From an uncultured virus (IMG/VR IMGVR_UViG_3300025103_000005) (taxonomy: Duplodnaviria; Heunggongvirae; Uroviricota; Caudoviricetes): 54,349 nt of DNA. The notes beneath the pieces are model-generated. The model was not told the origin of the DNA and made no database searches. It saw nothing but the letters and a program-made list of their open reading frames with translations. The position numbers and the translations under genes were made by a program. The DNA is taken from IMG/VR virus record IMGVR_UViG_3300025103_000005. The stretch is one strand, 5' to 3'. Positions 4,732-19,433 of the stretch are shown here, in pieces (the stretch's first letter is position 1; every line of letters begins with the position of its first letter).

Positions 4732-4756
4732 CTTTCCATCTCCACTGTTTTCACTA

Positions 4757-12261: not shown

Positions 12262-12754
12262 CCTTTTTTCGTCAAGGTTTCATCGAGGTTTTGGATTGAG
12301 GGTCAGTAACATGAGCGTGGTATCCTGTTTTTATGCGTGTGATACCATAGTTTTCCGATGATTCTATTGTCTTGTCTATACAATCGGACAGTTCGATTGT
12401 CCTACTACCCCTCTATACTACACTATTATTCTCCTTGTTTAGACAATACTAAGGAAACATCGGAAAGGTTCTGCCGTCTGTCCGAATCCGCGCTGTCCTC
12501 ATGTGTGTATGTGCAAATTAGCACAGTCTGCATAATCATCAGTGATATACAACCATGTGGGGGAGCATAGGACACACCGAAATAAGCATCGCTGCTTAAG
12601 TCAAGGGTATGTGGGGGTGTATCTCTCTCCGATAGTGAGAGGATATTCTATGAGAATACCAACCGTATGGGTGGGCGAGGCAAGTGATGTTGTGAGCCAC
12701 GATAAACCGCCTGCGGTTGTGGAACGAAGGACATCAATGACGAAGACCAACCCC

Positions 12755-12846
12755 GCCGTCTGCTCTCAGATGCCTTGCGGTCTGCTCAGATATCCCACGC
12801 ATACGGGTACGGTCTGCTCTCAGATACCCTGTGGTCTGCGGTCTGA
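12755..12846. repeat. Cluster of GGTCTGC-type repeats, including two 28-bp near-identical units (12758-12785, 12812-12839)
   Basis: gtctgctctcagat-gccttgc/accctgt-ggtctgc; the reverse complement GCAGACCGCA resembles the GCATACCGCA array. Confidence 0.75.
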
Positions 12847-12871: not shown

Positions 12872-13055
12872 CCAAGCCAAAAAAAATGCCCCCACCCCGC
12901 GAGTGCGGGGCGAGGGTAGGTAGGAGGACAGGGCATCGCCGCCATGATTGCACCGGCATGGTCGCGCCCTGCCCCCCTGTTCGTGAGCGTGTTGCCGCAC
13001 CCCCGCCGCTTGGACGGGGGGCGGTTGCGTAGTTCAGCCAATAACTAAGGCTTGG
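12872..13055 (-). ncRNA. Candidate structured RNA / 3' UTR with three stem-loops
   Basis: Stems CCGC-CCCCCG/CGGGGG-U-GCGG, GGGGGGCAGGGC/GCCCUGUCCUCC and the terminator hairpin; ends CCAAGCC/GGCUUGG are complementary. Confidence 0.45.
12879..12918 (-). terminator. GC-rich hairpin followed by a U8 tract
   Basis: Minus strand CCCUCGCCCCGC-ACUC-GCGGGGUGGGGG-CA-UUUUUUUU; 12-bp stem whose two G-U pairs form only on the minus strand. Confidence 0.7.
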
Positions 13056-13062
13056 AATCTAT

Positions 13063-13791
13063 TCAAGCGACATTACGGTCAAGGAACGCCTGTGCGCCCT
13101 TCGCCGTCTTGCCCTTGAACCCGAACTCTTTTGCGGCCAAGAGGACTACCTCGTCTTGGCTGATGTTGCCCTCAGTGGTGATGGTGAGGCCATCCATGAT
13201 GAGCCAAGCCGCACGCTGAGTGTGAGTGCGAGCCTGCTTTCGCAGGTCTTTCGCATCCTCTCGCTCGTGCCACTGCTTCCCATTTGTAGGTGGGATGAAG
13301 GTGCGACACCATGCTGCTGCTGCCTTACGCTGACTTGGGTAGCCACGAATGTTACCGTCGCCGTCAAAGACGCCGCGTGCTATCCACACACCGCCGTCAG
13401 CGATGGCCTGCTTAAGTCCGGCCTCTCGCTTGGCTGCCTTTGCTGTGAGGTGTGCAGCATAGCGTAGTTTCTCCATGTGGTAAGCAAGCACAGGTACTTT
13501 TCCTGTCTTTGCTGATGGTGTAAACTTGACCTTACTAGCCTTGATTGCACCGGCATGGTCGCACTTAACTGGTAGGTTACTTGCTACTTTTCGGTTAGCA
13601 ACTGCATCTTTGATGTAGCGGTGTAGGGCGTTCTTTGCTTGAGCCACCGTAGGTGTCCAAGCCCCTTTGACGGGGGCTGCTCCGGTGCAGATGAAGTCGA
13701 GCGTCATTGTTGCTCCACCCCACACTGCAAGAAGCCCCAGTACAAGGGTCTGCATTTCCATTGTGTTCTGTCGTGTTTTGTTCATTTTCAT
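13063..13791 (-). CDS. Basic Ala/Lys-rich hypothetical protein (242 aa), stand-alone transcription unit
   Basis: ORF track; GGCGGAG SD; own promoter (copy 4) and downstream terminator. Confidence 0.8.
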   Translation of the reverse strand: MKMNKTRQNTMEMQTLVLGLLAVWGGATMTLDFICTGAAPVKGAWTPTVAQAKNALHRYIKDAVANRKVASNLPVKCDHAGAIKASKVKFTPSAKTGKVPVLAYHMEKLRYAAHLTAKAAKREAGLKQAIADGGVWIARGVFDGDGNIRGYPSQRKAAAAWCRTFIPPTNGKQWHEREDAKDLRKQARTHTQRAAWLIMDGLTITTEGNISQDEVVLLAAKEFGFKGKTAKGAQAFLDRNVA

Positions 13792-13819
13792 TTCTCCGCC
13801 GTTGTCGGCAAATACACTA

Positions 13820-13844
13820 TACTATCTTCGTTTAAATACCAAAG
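13820..13844 (-). promoter_or_regulatory. Conserved early promoter, copy 4
   Basis: Exact copy of the 25-bp motif; identity with copy 1 extends to 31 bp. Confidence 0.8.
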
Positions 13845-13912
13845 CATGAAAGAAGGGGTCGGATTTACTTACTCTTATGTGCGACGCAAGGCATGATGTG
13901 AGAGGATTCAGA

Positions 13913-14312
13913 GCATACCGCAACAGCATACCGCAAAAGCAAACCGCGTGGGGGAGAGGTGTATTTGATACGACCAACCATACGGGTGGGGAATCCAAAG
14001 CGGTGCAAGGGCTGGCGTTGATGGTGAGGCGCAGCCGCGCAGTATAGCGGTTTTGTTGTAGCCTTGACCCTTAGCAAACGAGCGTATATGGGTGTATAGT
14101 GCGAGCGTAGTGCCGTCTTGCGGCACACGCGAGAGGCACACCGCTTGCGGGTGTGCCGGTCATATGAGCGCACGAAAGCAATAGCATACCGCAAGCATAC
14201 CGCAGGGCATACCGCAAGATGGTGTGGAAACTGCACCGCCGCAGTGGTGCATACCGCAAGCATACCGCAAGCCTTAGCCGGAGCAATAGGGCATACCGCA
14301 ATAGCATACCGC
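13913..14312 (+). repeat. Array of nine GCATACCGC(A) direct repeats (iteron/pac-like) at the strand-switch point
   Basis: Copies start at 13913, 13926, 14184, 14195, 14207, 14249, 14260, 14291, 14304; 11-13 bp spacing within clusters. Confidence 0.85.
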
Positions 14313-14393: not shown

Positions 14394-15854
14394 TTGTTTA
14401 TCCATCGAAACGTCAAAGAGGTTGACCGCTTTCCGTCATTCGTGAGTGCAGTGTGGCCTATCGACCGAGCATTCGATATTCTGAAGGCTCAGACTACGTT
14501 AGACCAATGGGGAATGAAGCCAAAACCAGTGCCGAAGAGGAAAAATAAGATTTTTGAAAAATTAGAGAGGTTTCGTCGCTACGATGAGGTTCCTGACTCG
14601 GTAAAGATGCATTTGTTGCCCAAAAATCACGACCATTACCCTCACGAGTTCGCAAATGAGATGGATGAAATAAAGACGAATGCACCTTGGGGGCTCGATG
14701 TGCCTATGCATGAGAGGCTTCTGAATCAAGGTGACGGTTTGTCGTTCCAAGTGACTCAGGACCATATTGACGCACAATACAAAACAAAAGCAAGGGAATG
14801 GGCGGAAAGGCTACACAGGCTTAGAGGAGATGAAGAGCGGATTTCGTATCTCTCACCGACATATAAACAACGGAGGGAATGGTTTGGTGAAGATGGCTTA
14901 CTTCTTACGCCTCAAGAAAAATGGTATCTAAGAGACCAACCAGTATCGAGAACTCTTCTTGAACAAGATGCCTATCTGGAAGATAGGAATATCAAAAGGG
15001 AGCAGGCCAATTGGAATGAGTTAGAAAAGTTAGGATTTAGAGAAGACAGCCTAGAACTACCGAGTTATTATGCTATGCCTTTTAGTCCCATTCTCAATCC
15101 AGAGACTTCTCGTGATAGCACTTTACCTGAGCATGATTGGAGTCTCGATAGGACTACTGGTTGGGAGGGCATAGAGCCAGTTAGCGCTGTACGATACATG
15201 GCCCCCGAATATGCGATGGATGCGCAAAAACGGGGAATTAAAGGGCGTGAAATGGAGGAAGATTCTCAGATGTGGGAGCACGAGTTTCGGGGTACTCATG
15301 GAAGGAGGATGCCTTTTGAGGTGGGACCGCCGTGGCCGATGAGCGATTCGACTTATCGTGACCAAGATAATCCTTATCTTGGTAATTTTATGTTTCCTGC
15401 ACCAGCAATTGATAATGGAAGACTCCGTGACTCATCGAAGGAAAAAACAGCCCGTGTAAAGCCAGTGGGCTTTGGGGGGAGGGGGAGTGAGGACAAGCAA
15501 TGGATAGGAGTAAGAGGAAACCCGTCTAAAATGACGGGGCAATTTGCTAACACTGGACATGCTACAGAGGGGGCAGAGGCTTTTATTGAGGGAGATTTTC
15601 CACCAGAGCAACTTATTACTGGGGGTGTGCCGAAAACGTGGCAAACTCGCGCCACACTAGCGGGAAATCGAGAGTGGGGGCATTTACCAAATGCATTTAT
15701 TCAAGGATTGATGCCTGACGGTGCAGCAGACCACATAATGGGTTGGGAACAGAGAGATGGGATGTATACCTTCTATGATAAGAATCGCAACCACGTGCTG
15801 GGACCGATTTCCAGAGACGATATGGCTGAGAGAATATCCGGAGGCTTCCAATGA
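14394..15854 (+). CDS. Leader-family protein with putative ART/Tpt1-like C-terminal domain (true start probably GTG 14442 or 14451)
   Basis: PIDRAFDILK leader variant, then QTTLDQW; VRYM..KRGIK, GNFMF, IGVRG and EAFIEGDFPPEQL align by eye with 18094 and 21225. Confidence 0.6.
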   Translation: MFIHRNVKEVDRFPSFVSAVWPIDRAFDILKAQTTLDQWGMKPKPVPKRKNKIFEKLERFRRYDEVPDSVKMHLLPKNHDHYPHEFANEMDEIKTNAPWGLDVPMHERLLNQGDGLSFQVTQDHIDAQYKTKAREWAERLHRLRGDEERISYLSPTYKQRREWFGEDGLLLTPQEKWYLRDQPVSRTLLEQDAYLEDRNIKREQANWNELEKLGFREDSLELPSYYAMPFSPILNPETSRDSTLPEHDWSLDRTTGWEGIEPVSAVRYMAPEYAMDAQKRGIKGREMEEDSQMWEHEFRGTHGRRMPFEVGPPWPMSDSTYRDQDNPYLGNFMFPAPAIDNGRLRDSSKEKTARVKPVGFGGRGSEDKQWIGVRGNPSKMTGQFANTGHATEGAEAFIEGDFPPEQLITGGVPKTWQTRATLAGNREWGHLPNAFIQGLMPDGAADHIMGWEQRDGMYTFYDKNRNHVLGPISRDDMAERISGGFQ

Positions 15855-16516
15855 CGCCTTTCGACAAAGCATGGACTTTTCTCAAAGCACCTATGGTCGA
15901 TGGTAGTTTAGAAAGGCGCGACACGTGGCAAGATAATGAGGGGGATGAGAACGTTCGCTATGTCGCTGACTTCAAGCATCCTGAGACTGGCGAGATGCAC
16001 CCGATGGTGGCTGACATCAATCATGCCGAAACAGACACGATGTATGGGAGATTTTCACATCCGATGATAAACATGAACATTTTACCACCTAATCATGATG
16101 TAGGCGATGTGCCAAAAAACCGGATGTTCTCTGAAGAAGATAGTTACAGGCACTCAATAGCAGAGGCTTCCTTTCGACCTCAAGAAAGCGATAATAACTT
16201 CGCCAATAGGAACATGATAGGTATGCCGAGAGTTAAGGATGCTGGACCAATGAGAAGAATGAAAGGATTTGAAGATTGGAAAGAAGATAATCCTGAACAT
16301 TCAGACATCAGTTTGATGGATTATATGATAATGTTGGATAATTACAAACATCAGGGTCATGGGACTGCCATGTATGATATGGCTGCTGATGTTCTCGACA
16401 GGGAGACACGAGGAGGTCATGTAATTGTGCGCGATGATGACCAAACCAATAATGCTGAAAGAATGTGGGCGAAACACAAGCATAGAAGTAATTGGCCGCA
16501 TAGGGGGCAAAGATGA
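15851..16516 (+). CDS. Leader-family protein with GNAT acetyltransferase-like domain
   Basis: MTPFDKAWTFLK leader; acetyl-CoA motif A-like YKHQGHGTAMYD and QTNNAERMW. Confidence 0.65.
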   Translation: MTPFDKAWTFLKAPMVDGSLERRDTWQDNEGDENVRYVADFKHPETGEMHPMVADINHAETDTMYGRFSHPMINMNILPPNHDVGDVPKNRMFSEEDSYRHSIAEASFRPQESDNNFANRNMIGMPRVKDAGPMRRMKGFEDWKEDNPEHSDISLMDYMIMLDNYKHQGHGTAMYDMAADVLDRETRGGHVIVRDDDQTNNAERMWAKHKHRSNWPHRGQR

Positions 16517-17220
16517 CCCCTTTCAACCAAGCGTGGCAAGTTCTCAAAATGGCGAGATACAAAGTTGGGCCGACTGAATTTTGGGATAGGGATGAGCCGA
16601 TTTATTCAGGTAAAGATGAAGAGGACAAAAAATGGTTCGATGGAAAGGGTTTTCCACAAACGAGGGATTTAGGCGAGAAGCCGAGTCATTGGAAGGACGA
16701 TTGGCATGATTGGGAAAGCAAACGTATTATCCCGAATTATTTTCCGATGGGTGGGAGTCCGTGGTTTGGTAGGATGGCGGGCAAAGTTATGATGCGCCCC
16801 TCGGATTTTCTCAGTTTGGCGTCGTCGAGCGAGCCGGGATATTACGGGGCCGACGAAAAGGGTAATCTTGATATTAGCCATTATTTAGAATCAGAGACGG
16901 GCAAGGGTATTGAGGAAAATATGAGGGCGGGCGTGCCTACTTTTATTCCAAATCTTAGTGTGAGTAGGGGGAATGTTATAGGTCACGAAGGGAGACACAG
17001 GATGGCGGCTGTTCATAATTTGATGGGTGATGAGCCAGTGCCTGTGCAGATTTCAACGGATGATTATTACGATAATCGCGGACATCGGGGTGAATATCCT
17101 CATCCGGCCACACAAGAAATGATGGATGATTTAGTTGGTGTGAAACTACGAGGGCAATATGATGAGGAAAGAAATTTGGAACTCACTCCCGAAATGTTTA
17201 GGATGGAGGGACAACAATGA
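16513..17220 (+). CDS. Leader-family protein with ParB/sulfiredoxin-like domain
   Basis: MTPFNQAWQVLK leader; GHEGRHRMAA...VPVQI resembles the ParB DGxHR motif. Confidence 0.65.
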   Translation: MTPFNQAWQVLKMARYKVGPTEFWDRDEPIYSGKDEEDKKWFDGKGFPQTRDLGEKPSHWKDDWHDWESKRIIPNYFPMGGSPWFGRMAGKVMMRPSDFLSLASSSEPGYYGADEKGNLDISHYLESETGKGIEENMRAGVPTFIPNLSVSRGNVIGHEGRHRMAAVHNLMGDEPVPVQISTDDYYDNRGHRGEYPHPATQEMMDDLVGVKLRGQYDEERNLELTPEMFRMEGQQ

Positions 17221-17714
17221 ACCCCTTCAACCAAGCGTGGACTTTTCTCAAAGCCCCAATTTATGAAACGGGTATTCCCAACATCAATTTTGTTACACAA
17301 GGCCCATTTCCAGACCCTTTTTGGAGGGAAGAGGAAAATGTATACGGCTACGTTCCTGATGACCCAAAAGGGAATGCGTATGGCTATCGTGATGAAGGAA
17401 ATGAGGTTGGGGAAATTAGTTATATGACACCCGGTGAATACGGAAAAATGACTACTGGAGAGGAAAAGGGCGGTATATATATTGACATGTTGGGGAGAAA
17501 ATTCTCTCCAAGAGAGTCAGATGATACTTTCTACCAAGAGATGATGGACAGGGCGGAGGCGGGAGAGGACATCAAGTTCGGTATGCCGTATGTTTTTCCC
17601 GATTCTCAGCCTGAAACATATCATGAAGGGAGACATAGAATGGCTGAACTCTTCGCTCGTGGTCACGGTGATACGCCCTTACCAGTCAAAGTCATGAGGG
17701 GGACTCACGGATGA
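17217..17714 (+). CDS. Leader-family protein with ParB/sulfiredoxin-like domain
   Basis: MNPFNQAWTFLK leader; HEGRHRMAEL...LPVKV. Confidence 0.65.
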   Translation: MNPFNQAWTFLKAPIYETGIPNINFVTQGPFPDPFWREEENVYGYVPDDPKGNAYGYRDEGNEVGEISYMTPGEYGKMTTGEEKGGIYIDMLGRKFSPRESDDTFYQEMMDRAEAGEDIKFGMPYVFPDSQPETYHEGRHRMAELFARGHGDTPLPVKVMRGTHG

Positions 17715-18097
17715 ACCCCTTCAACCAAGCGTGGGGCTTACTCAAAGAGGACATGAGCAGAGACCCCTCATGGGTCGTAGGGGGCATGAGCGACGACATA
17801 GCGTTTGATGGGGAAGCGGATTGTGAGAAACACGTCAGAGAATGGCTAGTCAGTGTCATAGGCTTCATGAGAAACAAAGACCCTTCCGATACAGCAGATA
17901 GGGCGTATGACTTCTATGCTAATGCTCCCTTTCAACACTTAGAGGCACTCTTGAGAAACGAACCCAGTGAGTTGCATGAGAAGGCTTTGGGTATGTTGGA
18001 GGACTGCCGCCAAGCGAATCTAGCAGAGCAGACAGGAGATGCTGATAGCAATCTACCCCCTATGCATTTCAGTGAACACATGAGGGATGAAGAATGA
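17711..18097 (+). CDS. Leader-family protein with unknown acidic helical cargo
   Basis: MNPFNQAWGLLK leader; ATGA-coupled. Confidence 0.75.
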   Translation: MNPFNQAWGLLKEDMSRDPSWVVGGMSDDIAFDGEADCEKHVREWLVSVIGFMRNKDPSDTADRAYDFYANAPFQHLEALLRNEPSELHEKALGMLEDCRQANLAEQTGDADSNLPPMHFSEHMRDEE

Positions 18098-18582
18098 ACC
18101 CCTTCGACCAAGCGTGGCTTTTGCTGAAACAGACCCGTCAAAGCACGTTAGGTGAGTATCATCCCGATTTCCCCTCTCCGCACGGTGATGTGATGTGGTA
18201 TCACGGCACAACAGCAAGACCCTCTTCGATAATCAATCGTGAAGGCTTAACCCCCCAAACACCTAATTATCACAACACATTATCGACAAGGTTGGACCCC
18301 TCTTTGCCTTCTCAGTTCCCAACAGGGGTTTATGCAACAGGTAAATTAAAGGATGCCCAAAGGTACGCTTATGCGAGAGGTCAAGATAGAAACCAATCAA
18401 GTCAAGTATATGGGATAAGAGAAGGTGTCTCTGAAACCCCCCAAGACAGACGCCTTAGAGAAATTGGAGAAAGTGCAGGTCGTAACATATCAACTGTCTT
18501 AGAAGATGTTAGATTCAGTAATCCAATACCAAGGCAGTATATCACTCCGGTGCCGATTCCTCTAAATCAAAAGACAGTTTAA
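18094..18582 (+). CDS. Leader-family protein with ADP-ribosyltransferase (PARP/Tpt1-like) domain
   Basis: MNPFDQAWLLLK leader; WYHGT...IINREGLTP...GVYAT...DAQRYA...IPRQYI. Confidence 0.7.
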   Translation: MNPFDQAWLLLKQTRQSTLGEYHPDFPSPHGDVMWYHGTTARPSSIINREGLTPQTPNYHNTLSTRLDPSLPSQFPTGVYATGKLKDAQRYAYARGQDRNQSSQVYGIREGVSETPQDRRLREIGESAGRNISTVLEDVRFSNPIPRQYITPVPIPLNQKTV

Positions 18583-18590
18583 GTCCGTTT

Positions 18591-19433
18591 ATGGACTTCA
18601 GCATTTACGAAGTGGGACCGAGAGACGGATTACAAAGTAGCGATACTATAACCCCTACTCATAAGAAAGTAGAACTCATTGAGAAGATAGCACAAGTGGG
18701 CATTGATAAGATTGAAGTCGGCGCAATGGTGAATCCCGACAAGGTTCCGAATATGGCTGATAGCGAACTGGTTTTCAGTAGAGTGGCTTGGTTACAATCG
18801 CAGTGTGAATTAGGGATGCTTGTCCCTAATAGGAAAGGCGTAGAAAGAGCAATGGATGTAGGAGTTACCCAATACAATGTCTTCTTTTCGCCGTCTGATT
18901 ACTTCAATACGAGAAATCATGGAAGAACCATGTCTCATATCTTCACGTCTTATTGTCACTCTCTTGCCGATGTTCCGAAGGATAACATCAGAGTATATCT
19001 CTCCACTTCTTTTGGTTGTCCTATTGCAGGCGAGATTCCAAGAAACTTAATGGAGAAGGCGCTCGATTGGGCGGATACATTGGGCTCTACAATTGTTCTA
19101 TGTGATACGATTGGTAAGGCTAACCCTCCTCTTATCACCAAAACGATGGCTTGGACAGAGGAGTTAGACGCTAAGATTGCCCTTCATCTTCATCATGGCA
19201 AGAGAAGAGGTAGAATGAAGGATAATCTGAGTGCTGCTTTCGATTGTGGCGTGGAACAATTCGATTCTTCAATTGGAGGAATGGGAGGTTGCCCATTCAT
19301 ACCGGGAAGCGGTGGAAATCTCGCTACTGAAGAATTAGTGATGTGGGGAGAAAAGGAGAATCTGGATTGTGGCGTCTCTCTAAGTGACATGAAGCCGCTC
19401 ATCAACTATGTGAATAAGGCCATCAAGGTCTAA
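18591..19433 (+). CDS. hmgL: Hydroxymethylglutaryl-CoA lyase (DRE-TIM metallolyase)
   Basis: EVGPRDGLQ, DTIG, LHLH metal motif, GGCPF catalytic Cys loop, GNLATE. Confidence 0.9.
   Translation: MDFSIYEVGPRDGLQSSDTITPTHKKVELIEKIAQVGIDKIEVGAMVNPDKVPNMADSELVFSRVAWLQSQCELGMLVPNRKGVERAMDVGVTQYNVFFSPSDYFNTRNHGRTMSHIFTSYCHSLADVPKDNIRVYLSTSFGCPIAGEIPRNLMEKALDWADTLGSTIVLCDTIGKANPPLITKTMAWTEELDAKIALHLHHGKRRGRMKDNLSAAFDCGVEQFDSSIGGMGGCPFIPGSGGNLATEELVMWGEKENLDCGVSLSDMKPLINYVNKAIKV

Follow-up and report, generated by a model that had tools for sequence, protein, structure and literature searches.

The window analysed in the present study is a stretch of 54,349 nucleotides of DNA from an uncultured virus. 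In this window, the gene for a basic 242-aa protein is followed by G+C-rich hairpins, and the tip of one hairpin holds an exact 21-nt copy of the gene's own coding sequence. The question is whether the copy is a working part of a protein-plus-RNA module, as a sequence-only reading of the DNA had suggested, or whether it has another origin. Our analysis indicated that the copy is real, but that it amounts to an insertion specific to one strain, within a 3' tail of an ordinary type. It is likely that a recent templated insertion carried coding sequence from the gene into a dispensable hairpin tip, and that the hairpins are the 3' tail of the mRNA together with its terminator. The 21-mer looks like a lineage-specific recombination accident, not a protein-guiding RNA.

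To place the locus, we scanned the 18 large proteins of the window, which included terminase, portal, prohead protease, capsid, ATP-dependent ligase and SNF2 helicase. The capsid shared 31-33% identity with those of HCTV/HVTV haloviruses, the runs carrying the locus were marine metagenomes, and the records of relatives were 95-116 kb long. In this, the window shares a characteristic magrovirus feature, a head-tail module of the halovirus type carried by a marine virus of roughly 100 kb. No family B polymerase, clamp, primase or MCM was found among the 18 proteins, the window being part of a genome. To our knowledge, no magrovirus has been cultured so far. Magrovirus group A is reported to have an SNF2 helicase (PMC5434244). 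Based on the halovirus-like capsid, the gene set with the SNF2 helicase and the marine occurrence, the window fits a magrovirus-like marine archaeal virus, and its host is probably an archaeon. The nearest record (G001) lacked the locus. Elsewhere in the window, an HMG-CoA-lyase-like gene was located at 18591-19433 on the structural side of the virus (Pfam HMGL-like, E 7e-26), and the plus-strand genes at 15851-18582 shared an N-terminal MxPFxxAWxxLK motif with near-identical first codons.

The locus lies at a strand switch at about 14 kb, with minus-strand genes to the left and plus-strand genes to the right. The 242-aa gene is the first minus-strand gene at this switch and is located downstream of a 28-nt TATA-containing element:

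13063..13791, minus strand: gene for the basic 242-aa protein (pI 10.1; 240 aa if the second ATG is used)

13818..13845, minus strand: 28-nt element that contains a TATA-like box and lies ahead of the 242-aa gene on its upstream side, a probable early viral promoter

Four copies of the element were found in the window (at 4755, 6068, 12235 and 13818), all on the minus strand and ahead of small or early genes.

The duplication itself comprises two segments separated by a spacing of 597 nt:

13542..13562, minus strand: coding copy of the 21-mer, in the codons of the CDHAGAI region, 229 nt into the CDS; the presumed donor

12945..12965, minus strand: non-coding copy, in which 13 nt stand for 7 nt of the GNRA tip of the nearest relative, L001, and the other 8 nt are common to L001

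The sequence-only reading had described an exact copy in the same orientation, with 24/25 identical positions when the flanks are included, and both statements were borne out. In 2000 dinucleotide shuffles, the longest string common to the shuffled 184-nt tail and the CDS was 6-13 nt, and none came near 21 nt; the match is far beyond chance. Contigs from 4 of the 24 listed runs were then compared with the window. One X2 contig (12619-13721) covered both copies, and an X11 contig (12821-13320) and a contig of the RNA run X16 (12929-13317) carried the non-coding copy, all with 0 differences. These results demonstrated that the duplication is real and not an assembly error. The allele with the copy showed 0 differences across three runs of different years and was widespread and persistent among the marine runs. 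Such persistence fits neutrality, and it would fit a benefit as well. At position 13552, the non-coding copy had the window's own synonymous allele, and L001, L004 and the X13 variant carried another base. A shared base is expected of a recent copy; the indication is weak, because it concerns one site and the tip of L001 has C there too. The X13 variant had no cover over 12921-13058, and the stem tip falls outside its span.

We further analysed the RNA that would follow the stop codon on the gene's strand. The following elements were recognized:

12995..13030, minus strand: ACGCAA(C/G)C motif with a G+C-rich hairpin, found in 7/15 loci, with one C-G to U-A double change relative to L001

12922..12978, minus strand: accessory stem holding the copy, seen in the window and L001 only

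12879..12916, minus strand: terminator-like 12-bp hairpin (12889-12916) followed by a U8 tract (12879-12886), the top hit of the terminator scan

12756..12839, no strand assigned: three short repeats past the terminator, with one further copy in L001

The 201 nt past the stop folded with -104.2 kcal/mol (z -5.5) on the gene's minus strand versus -97.4 kcal/mol (z -3.7) on the plus strand, in agreement with the strand preference that had been proposed from G-U pairs. A 12-bp stem with the copy at its apex between two other hairpins had also been claimed. The stem (arms 12966-12977/12923-12934) and both hairpins were recovered, but the copy lies in the loop only in part: some 9 nt were unpaired, and the remainder builds the upper stem. 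The proposed pairing of the element's ends, CCAAGCC with GGCUUGG, formed in the isolated fold, but its 3' half lies past the U8 tract and its 5' half is missing in L001, so that it is not conserved. As for a structured minus-strand RNA in general, the folding and pair-preserving changes in relatives spoke for it. One X16 RNA contig covered the region and joined the 3' part of the gene to the stem, with its strand not given and DNA carry-over in the library uncontrolled.

The terminator hairpin has 12 pairs, 10 of them G-C, and is directly followed by U8, which is the hairpin-plus-U-tract pattern of an intrinsic terminator. The tail gave no Rfam match at the gathering score, the single hit being at chance level (E 0.51), and it contained no repeated guide-type units. 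For the hairpin region, the best reading is a 3' untranslated tail on the mRNA of the 242-aa gene, closed by a hairpin-plus-U8 terminator. This terminal hairpin with its U8 would stop transcription and probably protect the mRNA end.

Comparison with relatives pointed in the same direction. L002 (28% identity over 120 residues, with unrelated surroundings) was removed ahead of any counting, L017 was excluded as an unrelated pattern match, and L004, with 60 nt past the stop, was kept outside the tail counts. Of 38 candidate loci, 26 lacked a family gene within 1.8 kb and were left out, and the remainder represented 6 records already known and 2 that were new. In each of the 12 loci compared over a full tail, G+C-rich hairpins were located within 70-255 nt of the stop, the last of them followed by at least 6 U, and two more loci agreed. 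The sense strand folded better in 10 of these 12. Among four alignable sequences, 3 of 11 terminator pairs showed double changes and 0 were broken. The ACGCAA(C/G)C motif stood ahead of the first large hairpin in the 7 of 15 loci listed above, with one further weak match. For the first hairpin, the automatic alignment was shifted in register and no covariation emerged from it (0.03 kcal/mol); for this reason, the conservation of this hairpin rests on single folds and the motif. Between the window and L001, all 30 predicted pairs of two hairpins were kept, one of them through the C-G to U-A change. The tails varied from 70 to 255 nt in length, their hairpins were unrelated in sequence and variable in number, and whole hairpins were gained or lost between close relatives. 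For example, L011 has one hairpin absent from L010, and L001 has 92 nt extra between stem and terminator and lacks the first 15-nt insert of the window.

The next comparison concerned the copy itself. In collection scans that left out near-identical genomes, none of the 13 other full-tail loci (L001, L005-L014, L067 and L075) carried a tail copy of its own CDS, and the longest common string was 8-12 nt. The copy-bearing stem was found in the window and L001 only and was missing in the other 12 of these loci. When whole records were searched, 0/10 had an exact tail match of more than 13 nt elsewhere in the same record (longest 10-13 nt). When 16-mers were searched with one mismatch allowed, only one stretch of L001 and two of L006 found matches. 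In L001, the homologous stem ends in a 4-bp stem with a GCGA tetraloop of the GNRA type, where the window has 13 nt of coding sequence replacing 7 nt; the remaining 8 nt of the 21-mer are common to the L001 stem. The tail of L001 scored 20 against its own CDS, with a shuffle mean of 19.6, and thus showed no likeness above shuffles. These results gave no support to the 21-mer as a working part of a protein-plus-RNA module. What the sequence-only reading had named as refuting it was partly observed: the duplication was missing from all 13 homologous loci, its stem was confined to the window and L001, and L001 has a GNRA tetraloop at this place.

The same comparison suggested how the copy could have arisen. 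The L001 stem and the CDS share a 7-nt match at the junction on the 5' side and 4 of 5 nt on the 3' side, so that a nearby donor and junction matches, as expected of a templated micro-insertion, accompany the 13 new nt. The 21-mer would have arisen once and recently in the window's lineage. In an L001-like ancestor, GCGACCA would have been present in the upper stem and, as a coincidence, also 597 nt upstream in the CDS. Primed by this 7-nt match and resolved at the 4-of-5 match, an event of repair, template switching or gene conversion at this hairpin may then have exchanged the 7-nt tip for 13 nt of coding sequence. The CDS is taken as the donor because its codons encode the conserved CDHAGA motif, which was kept in 6/6 close relatives. 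The predicted stem energy was -39.2 kcal/mol in L001 versus -36.1 kcal/mol in the window; the changed stem would still fold, being 3 kcal/mol less stable, which argues that the change was tolerated; it does not call for a function. The GNRA tip of L001, its higher stability and its lack of CDS likeness favour the insert-free state as ancestral, with two stem alleles available for the comparison. The opposite direction, in which an ancestor with the copy lost it in L001, is possible, since the comparison is unrooted and has two alleles. A further point against the insertion reading is that a similar small hairpin, with an identical loop, can form in either copy.

A recombination event would be in keeping with the behaviour of the locus. 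The protein identity between the window and L001 was 77%, although the flanking DNA is nearly identical, and mixed alleles were found among cluster members. Given this disparity, the gene locus appears to be unusually mosaic between near-identical strains and to recombine freely.

The protein was then examined for a known RNA-guided or RNA-binding function. Sequence searches recovered 6 close and about 45 distant relatives, with none among annotated phages or in the genome contig collection, and the P0008 search recovered no locus. The family gene was single-copy in the 10/10 records carrying it, and the family was basic wherever checked (pI 9.1-10.3 in 8 proteins). A first model built from 6 sequences was discarded as poor (pLDDT 54), and the model from a 25-sequence alignment was confident (pLDDT 91, pTM 0.75). 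With this model, no fold match was found in the PDB or viral structure libraries (Foldseek E <= 0.001; best Z 4.1), the C-terminal half being barely covered. Within this coverage, no known RNA-guided or RNA-binding fold emerged from the fold searches. Atlas matches were all below 0.9. Pfam and PHROGs gave no useful match and no family name for the 242-aa protein, PHROGs matched none of 25 family members, and no RuvC, HNH, other nuclease or Nop family match was obtained for the protein and the members searched. Among the 25 members, Pfam gave weak SAP hits at the C-terminus of 2 distant ones (E 0.028-0.043). A Csm3 match in 1/25 members (E 0.0017) was taken as chance. Searching PDB sequences with either the full alignment or its C-terminal part yielded nothing credible (ribosomal L35, E 0.05; an RpiR-type regulator fragment, E 0.003).

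Against this background, we considered other readings of the copy. In one, the protein would bind a hairpin in its own coding sequence, and the tail copy would titrate the protein as a decoy or double the site as a second operator. The protein is basic, both copies can fold as a 3-4-bp stem with the same 9-10-nt loop, and the ACGCAA motif before the first hairpin in 7/15 loci could be a protein site. In an autogenous translational operator, the site would be expected to cover the translation start and to be retained across relatives. Here, the copy was missing in 13/13 other loci, and the coding copy lies 229 nt inside the CDS, far from the start codon. In addition, the coding hairpin was weak, with its middle pairs unpaired (probability 0.65 at one position), and its sequence is accounted for by the conserved CDHAGA residues. 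We consider such autoregulation improbable. A broader version, to which we give very little credence, is that the protein complexes with its own 3' RNA through the ACGCAA motif and the hairpin scaffold, and that accessory tips capture DNA pieces that steer or titrate it. On this view, the window would contain a piece newly captured from the protein's own gene, and the two palindromes would bracket this unit at an origin or terminus.

A further reading is that the in-frame repeats recombine with loss of the intervening 597 nt, and that the resulting 122-aa fusion is an off state used by the virus. The spacing is divisible by 3, and the exact product was found as P0048 on a 116,212-nt contig. 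In this fusion, 81 residues derive from the protein and 47 from the tail frame, with an overlap of 6; it corresponds to removal of window positions 12966-13562. It is a single record, and a 21-nt exact repeat could cause assembly collapse, since 21 nt is a common smallest assembly word; the P0048 deletion could be either real or such a collapse. The joint was not seen in the 4 runs compared, in which contigs drop rare forms, the relatives have no repeat, and an in-frame spacing is expected once in three by chance. Use of the deletion as a switch deserves still less credence.

A guide-like RNA would treat the tail as a scaffold and the stem tip as a reprogrammable guide aimed at the virus's own gene, where it could pair with the template strand. 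The compact combination of a single basic protein of no known fold with a structured 3' RNA is compatible with this, as is the difference in the tip between the two known alleles. Yet the tails of 10 relatives had no target in their own record or, homologous tails aside, in the other viral records compared. The stem was missing in 12/13 other loci, repeated units were absent from the tail, the one Rfam hit (E 0.51) was at chance level, and no nuclease or Nop family match was obtained. The guide is hardly credible, and, like the decoy, it found no support in a relative's copy or in targets in relatives' records. That the copy is an assembly error or a coincidence is practically negligible: G+C-rich hairpins are hard to assemble and several contigs break near the tail, but contigs of three other runs were identical, one spanning both copies, and shuffles reached 13 nt at most.

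With the templated insertion into the tail as the preferred reading of the copy, the flanks of the gene suggested where its protein may act. Repeats were found on both sides:

13974..13989, no strand assigned: upstream 16-bp pseudo-palindrome with 6-bp arms and a 4-bp core

12659..12674, no strand assigned: downstream 16-bp pseudo-palindrome, the bracket partner

13910..14312, no strand assigned: short direct-repeat cluster with 8 copies of a 12-nt unit

The palindrome consensus was CCA(A/C)CC-RTAY-GG(G/T)TGG. In 12/12 protein-found loci, a single copy lay 111-197 nt ahead of the start and another 156-483 nt past the stop. With one mismatch allowed, only these two copies were present in the window and in 8/10 records, and two records held 1-2 more. 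Two further loci found through the palindrome itself had the same layout, partly by construction. At the place of the upstream repeats, relatives had lineage-specific 8-9-nt repeats, and most loci carried 4-10 copies in the 700 nt upstream; these short repeats are iteron-like. The family gene lay no more than 1 kb from the cumulative G-C skew minimum in 8/10 records and 4.7 and 7.7 kb from it in the other two. The skew minimum alone is no proof of an origin, because skew tracks transcription as well as replication. Beyond the downstream palindrome, a non-coding stretch of about 350 nt (12300-12660; L008-L012) contained blocks conserved among viruses whose proteins were about 30% identical, with a 32-nt inverted repeat (12352-12383/12435-12466) inside them.

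Contig ends also fell at this unit. Of two independent short contigs, a further one from X2 ends at 13979, the arm/core boundary of the upstream palindrome, and L004 begins with the inner arm of that palindrome. These ends at 13979/13980 may mark a physical genome end, in which case the unit would be a terminal repeat carrying the first gene; a variable base at the arm/core boundary could also break assemblies. A 100-kb related virus record without the family gene (G012) begins 33 nt inside the palindrome (L066, positions 34-49), which suggests that assemblies break at the variable unit. None of the 10 long records ended at the palindrome. The palindromes may serve as an operator pair, as origin sites or as terminase sites. 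We lean slightly towards the unit being an origin or a paired operator bound by the protein, and regard a genome terminus as a less likely, tentative alternative. The palindromes, the basic charge and the weak SAP-like C-terminus make it more likely that the 242-aa protein acts on DNA sites around its own gene than on the tail RNA. No description of this palindrome unit, or of a magrovirus origin or termini, was found in the literature within reach, including the accessible parts of PMC5434244, PMC10160649 and PMC11706807, with supplements and subscription papers outside this scope.

As a strain-specific 3'-tail insertion, the copy is of minor import; it illustrates how hairpins in a viral locus prone to recombination acquire sequence from nearby, which leaves a repeat that favours deletion. 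The palindrome-bracketed gene of unmatched fold at a strand switch matters more, as a concrete candidate origin or terminus and as a marker for finding the same site in other genomes.

Among known processes, templated insertion by microhomology-mediated template switching or gene conversion is an established mechanism. The present case resembles it in having a short same-orientation copy of nearby DNA with junction matches at a hairpin; it is deduced from two alleles, with no enzyme assigned. TnpB/IscB-type RNAs, including those of dead-nuclease repressors, go with a RuvC or HNH domain, a conserved scaffold and a variable guide that has a target. Our locus likewise has a structured RNA 3' of a gene for a basic protein, but the variable part is an internal hairpin tip, the unit is single-copy per genome, fixed in place and not mobile, and a target for each homologous locus was not seen (0/10 relatives' tails with an exact match of more than 13 nt in their own record). 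TIGR-Tas is similar in placing a small protein gene of an archaeal virus beside tandem stem-loops. It combines a Nop domain with repeated units that hold two 8-12-nt spacers between box C and D motifs, as given in the accessible part of PMC12045711. The present tail has no repeated dual-spacer units, the relatives' loops had no targets, and no Nop-domain match was found in the 242-aa protein (no family from Pfam and, with Foldseek at E <= 0.001, no structural match; best Z 4.1).

The tail is closer to an intrinsic (Rho-independent) terminator, with a G+C-rich hairpin and a U run right after the gene and a structure kept as the sequence changes, but here one to several extra hairpins come first. 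In the portion of PMC8716108 open to us, archaeal U tracts usually terminate without a hairpin. Because archaeal terminators need no strict hairpin, the family-wide row of hairpins exceeds what termination needs. With regard to the bracketed unit, HCTV-1 has a 739-bp terminal repeat holding one gene, and its repeat and ends lie where transcription converges, whereas the window's locus lies where transcription diverges (PMC3950731, accessible part). This opposite geometry, together with 0/10 long records ending at the palindrome, weakened an HCTV-1-style terminal repeat. In gene content, the window resembles both the magroviruses (PMC5434244 and PMC10160649) and the HCTV-1-like haloviruses (PMC3950731), as far as the available parts of these sources describe them, sharing terminase, portal, protease, capsid, ligase and SNF2 helicase.
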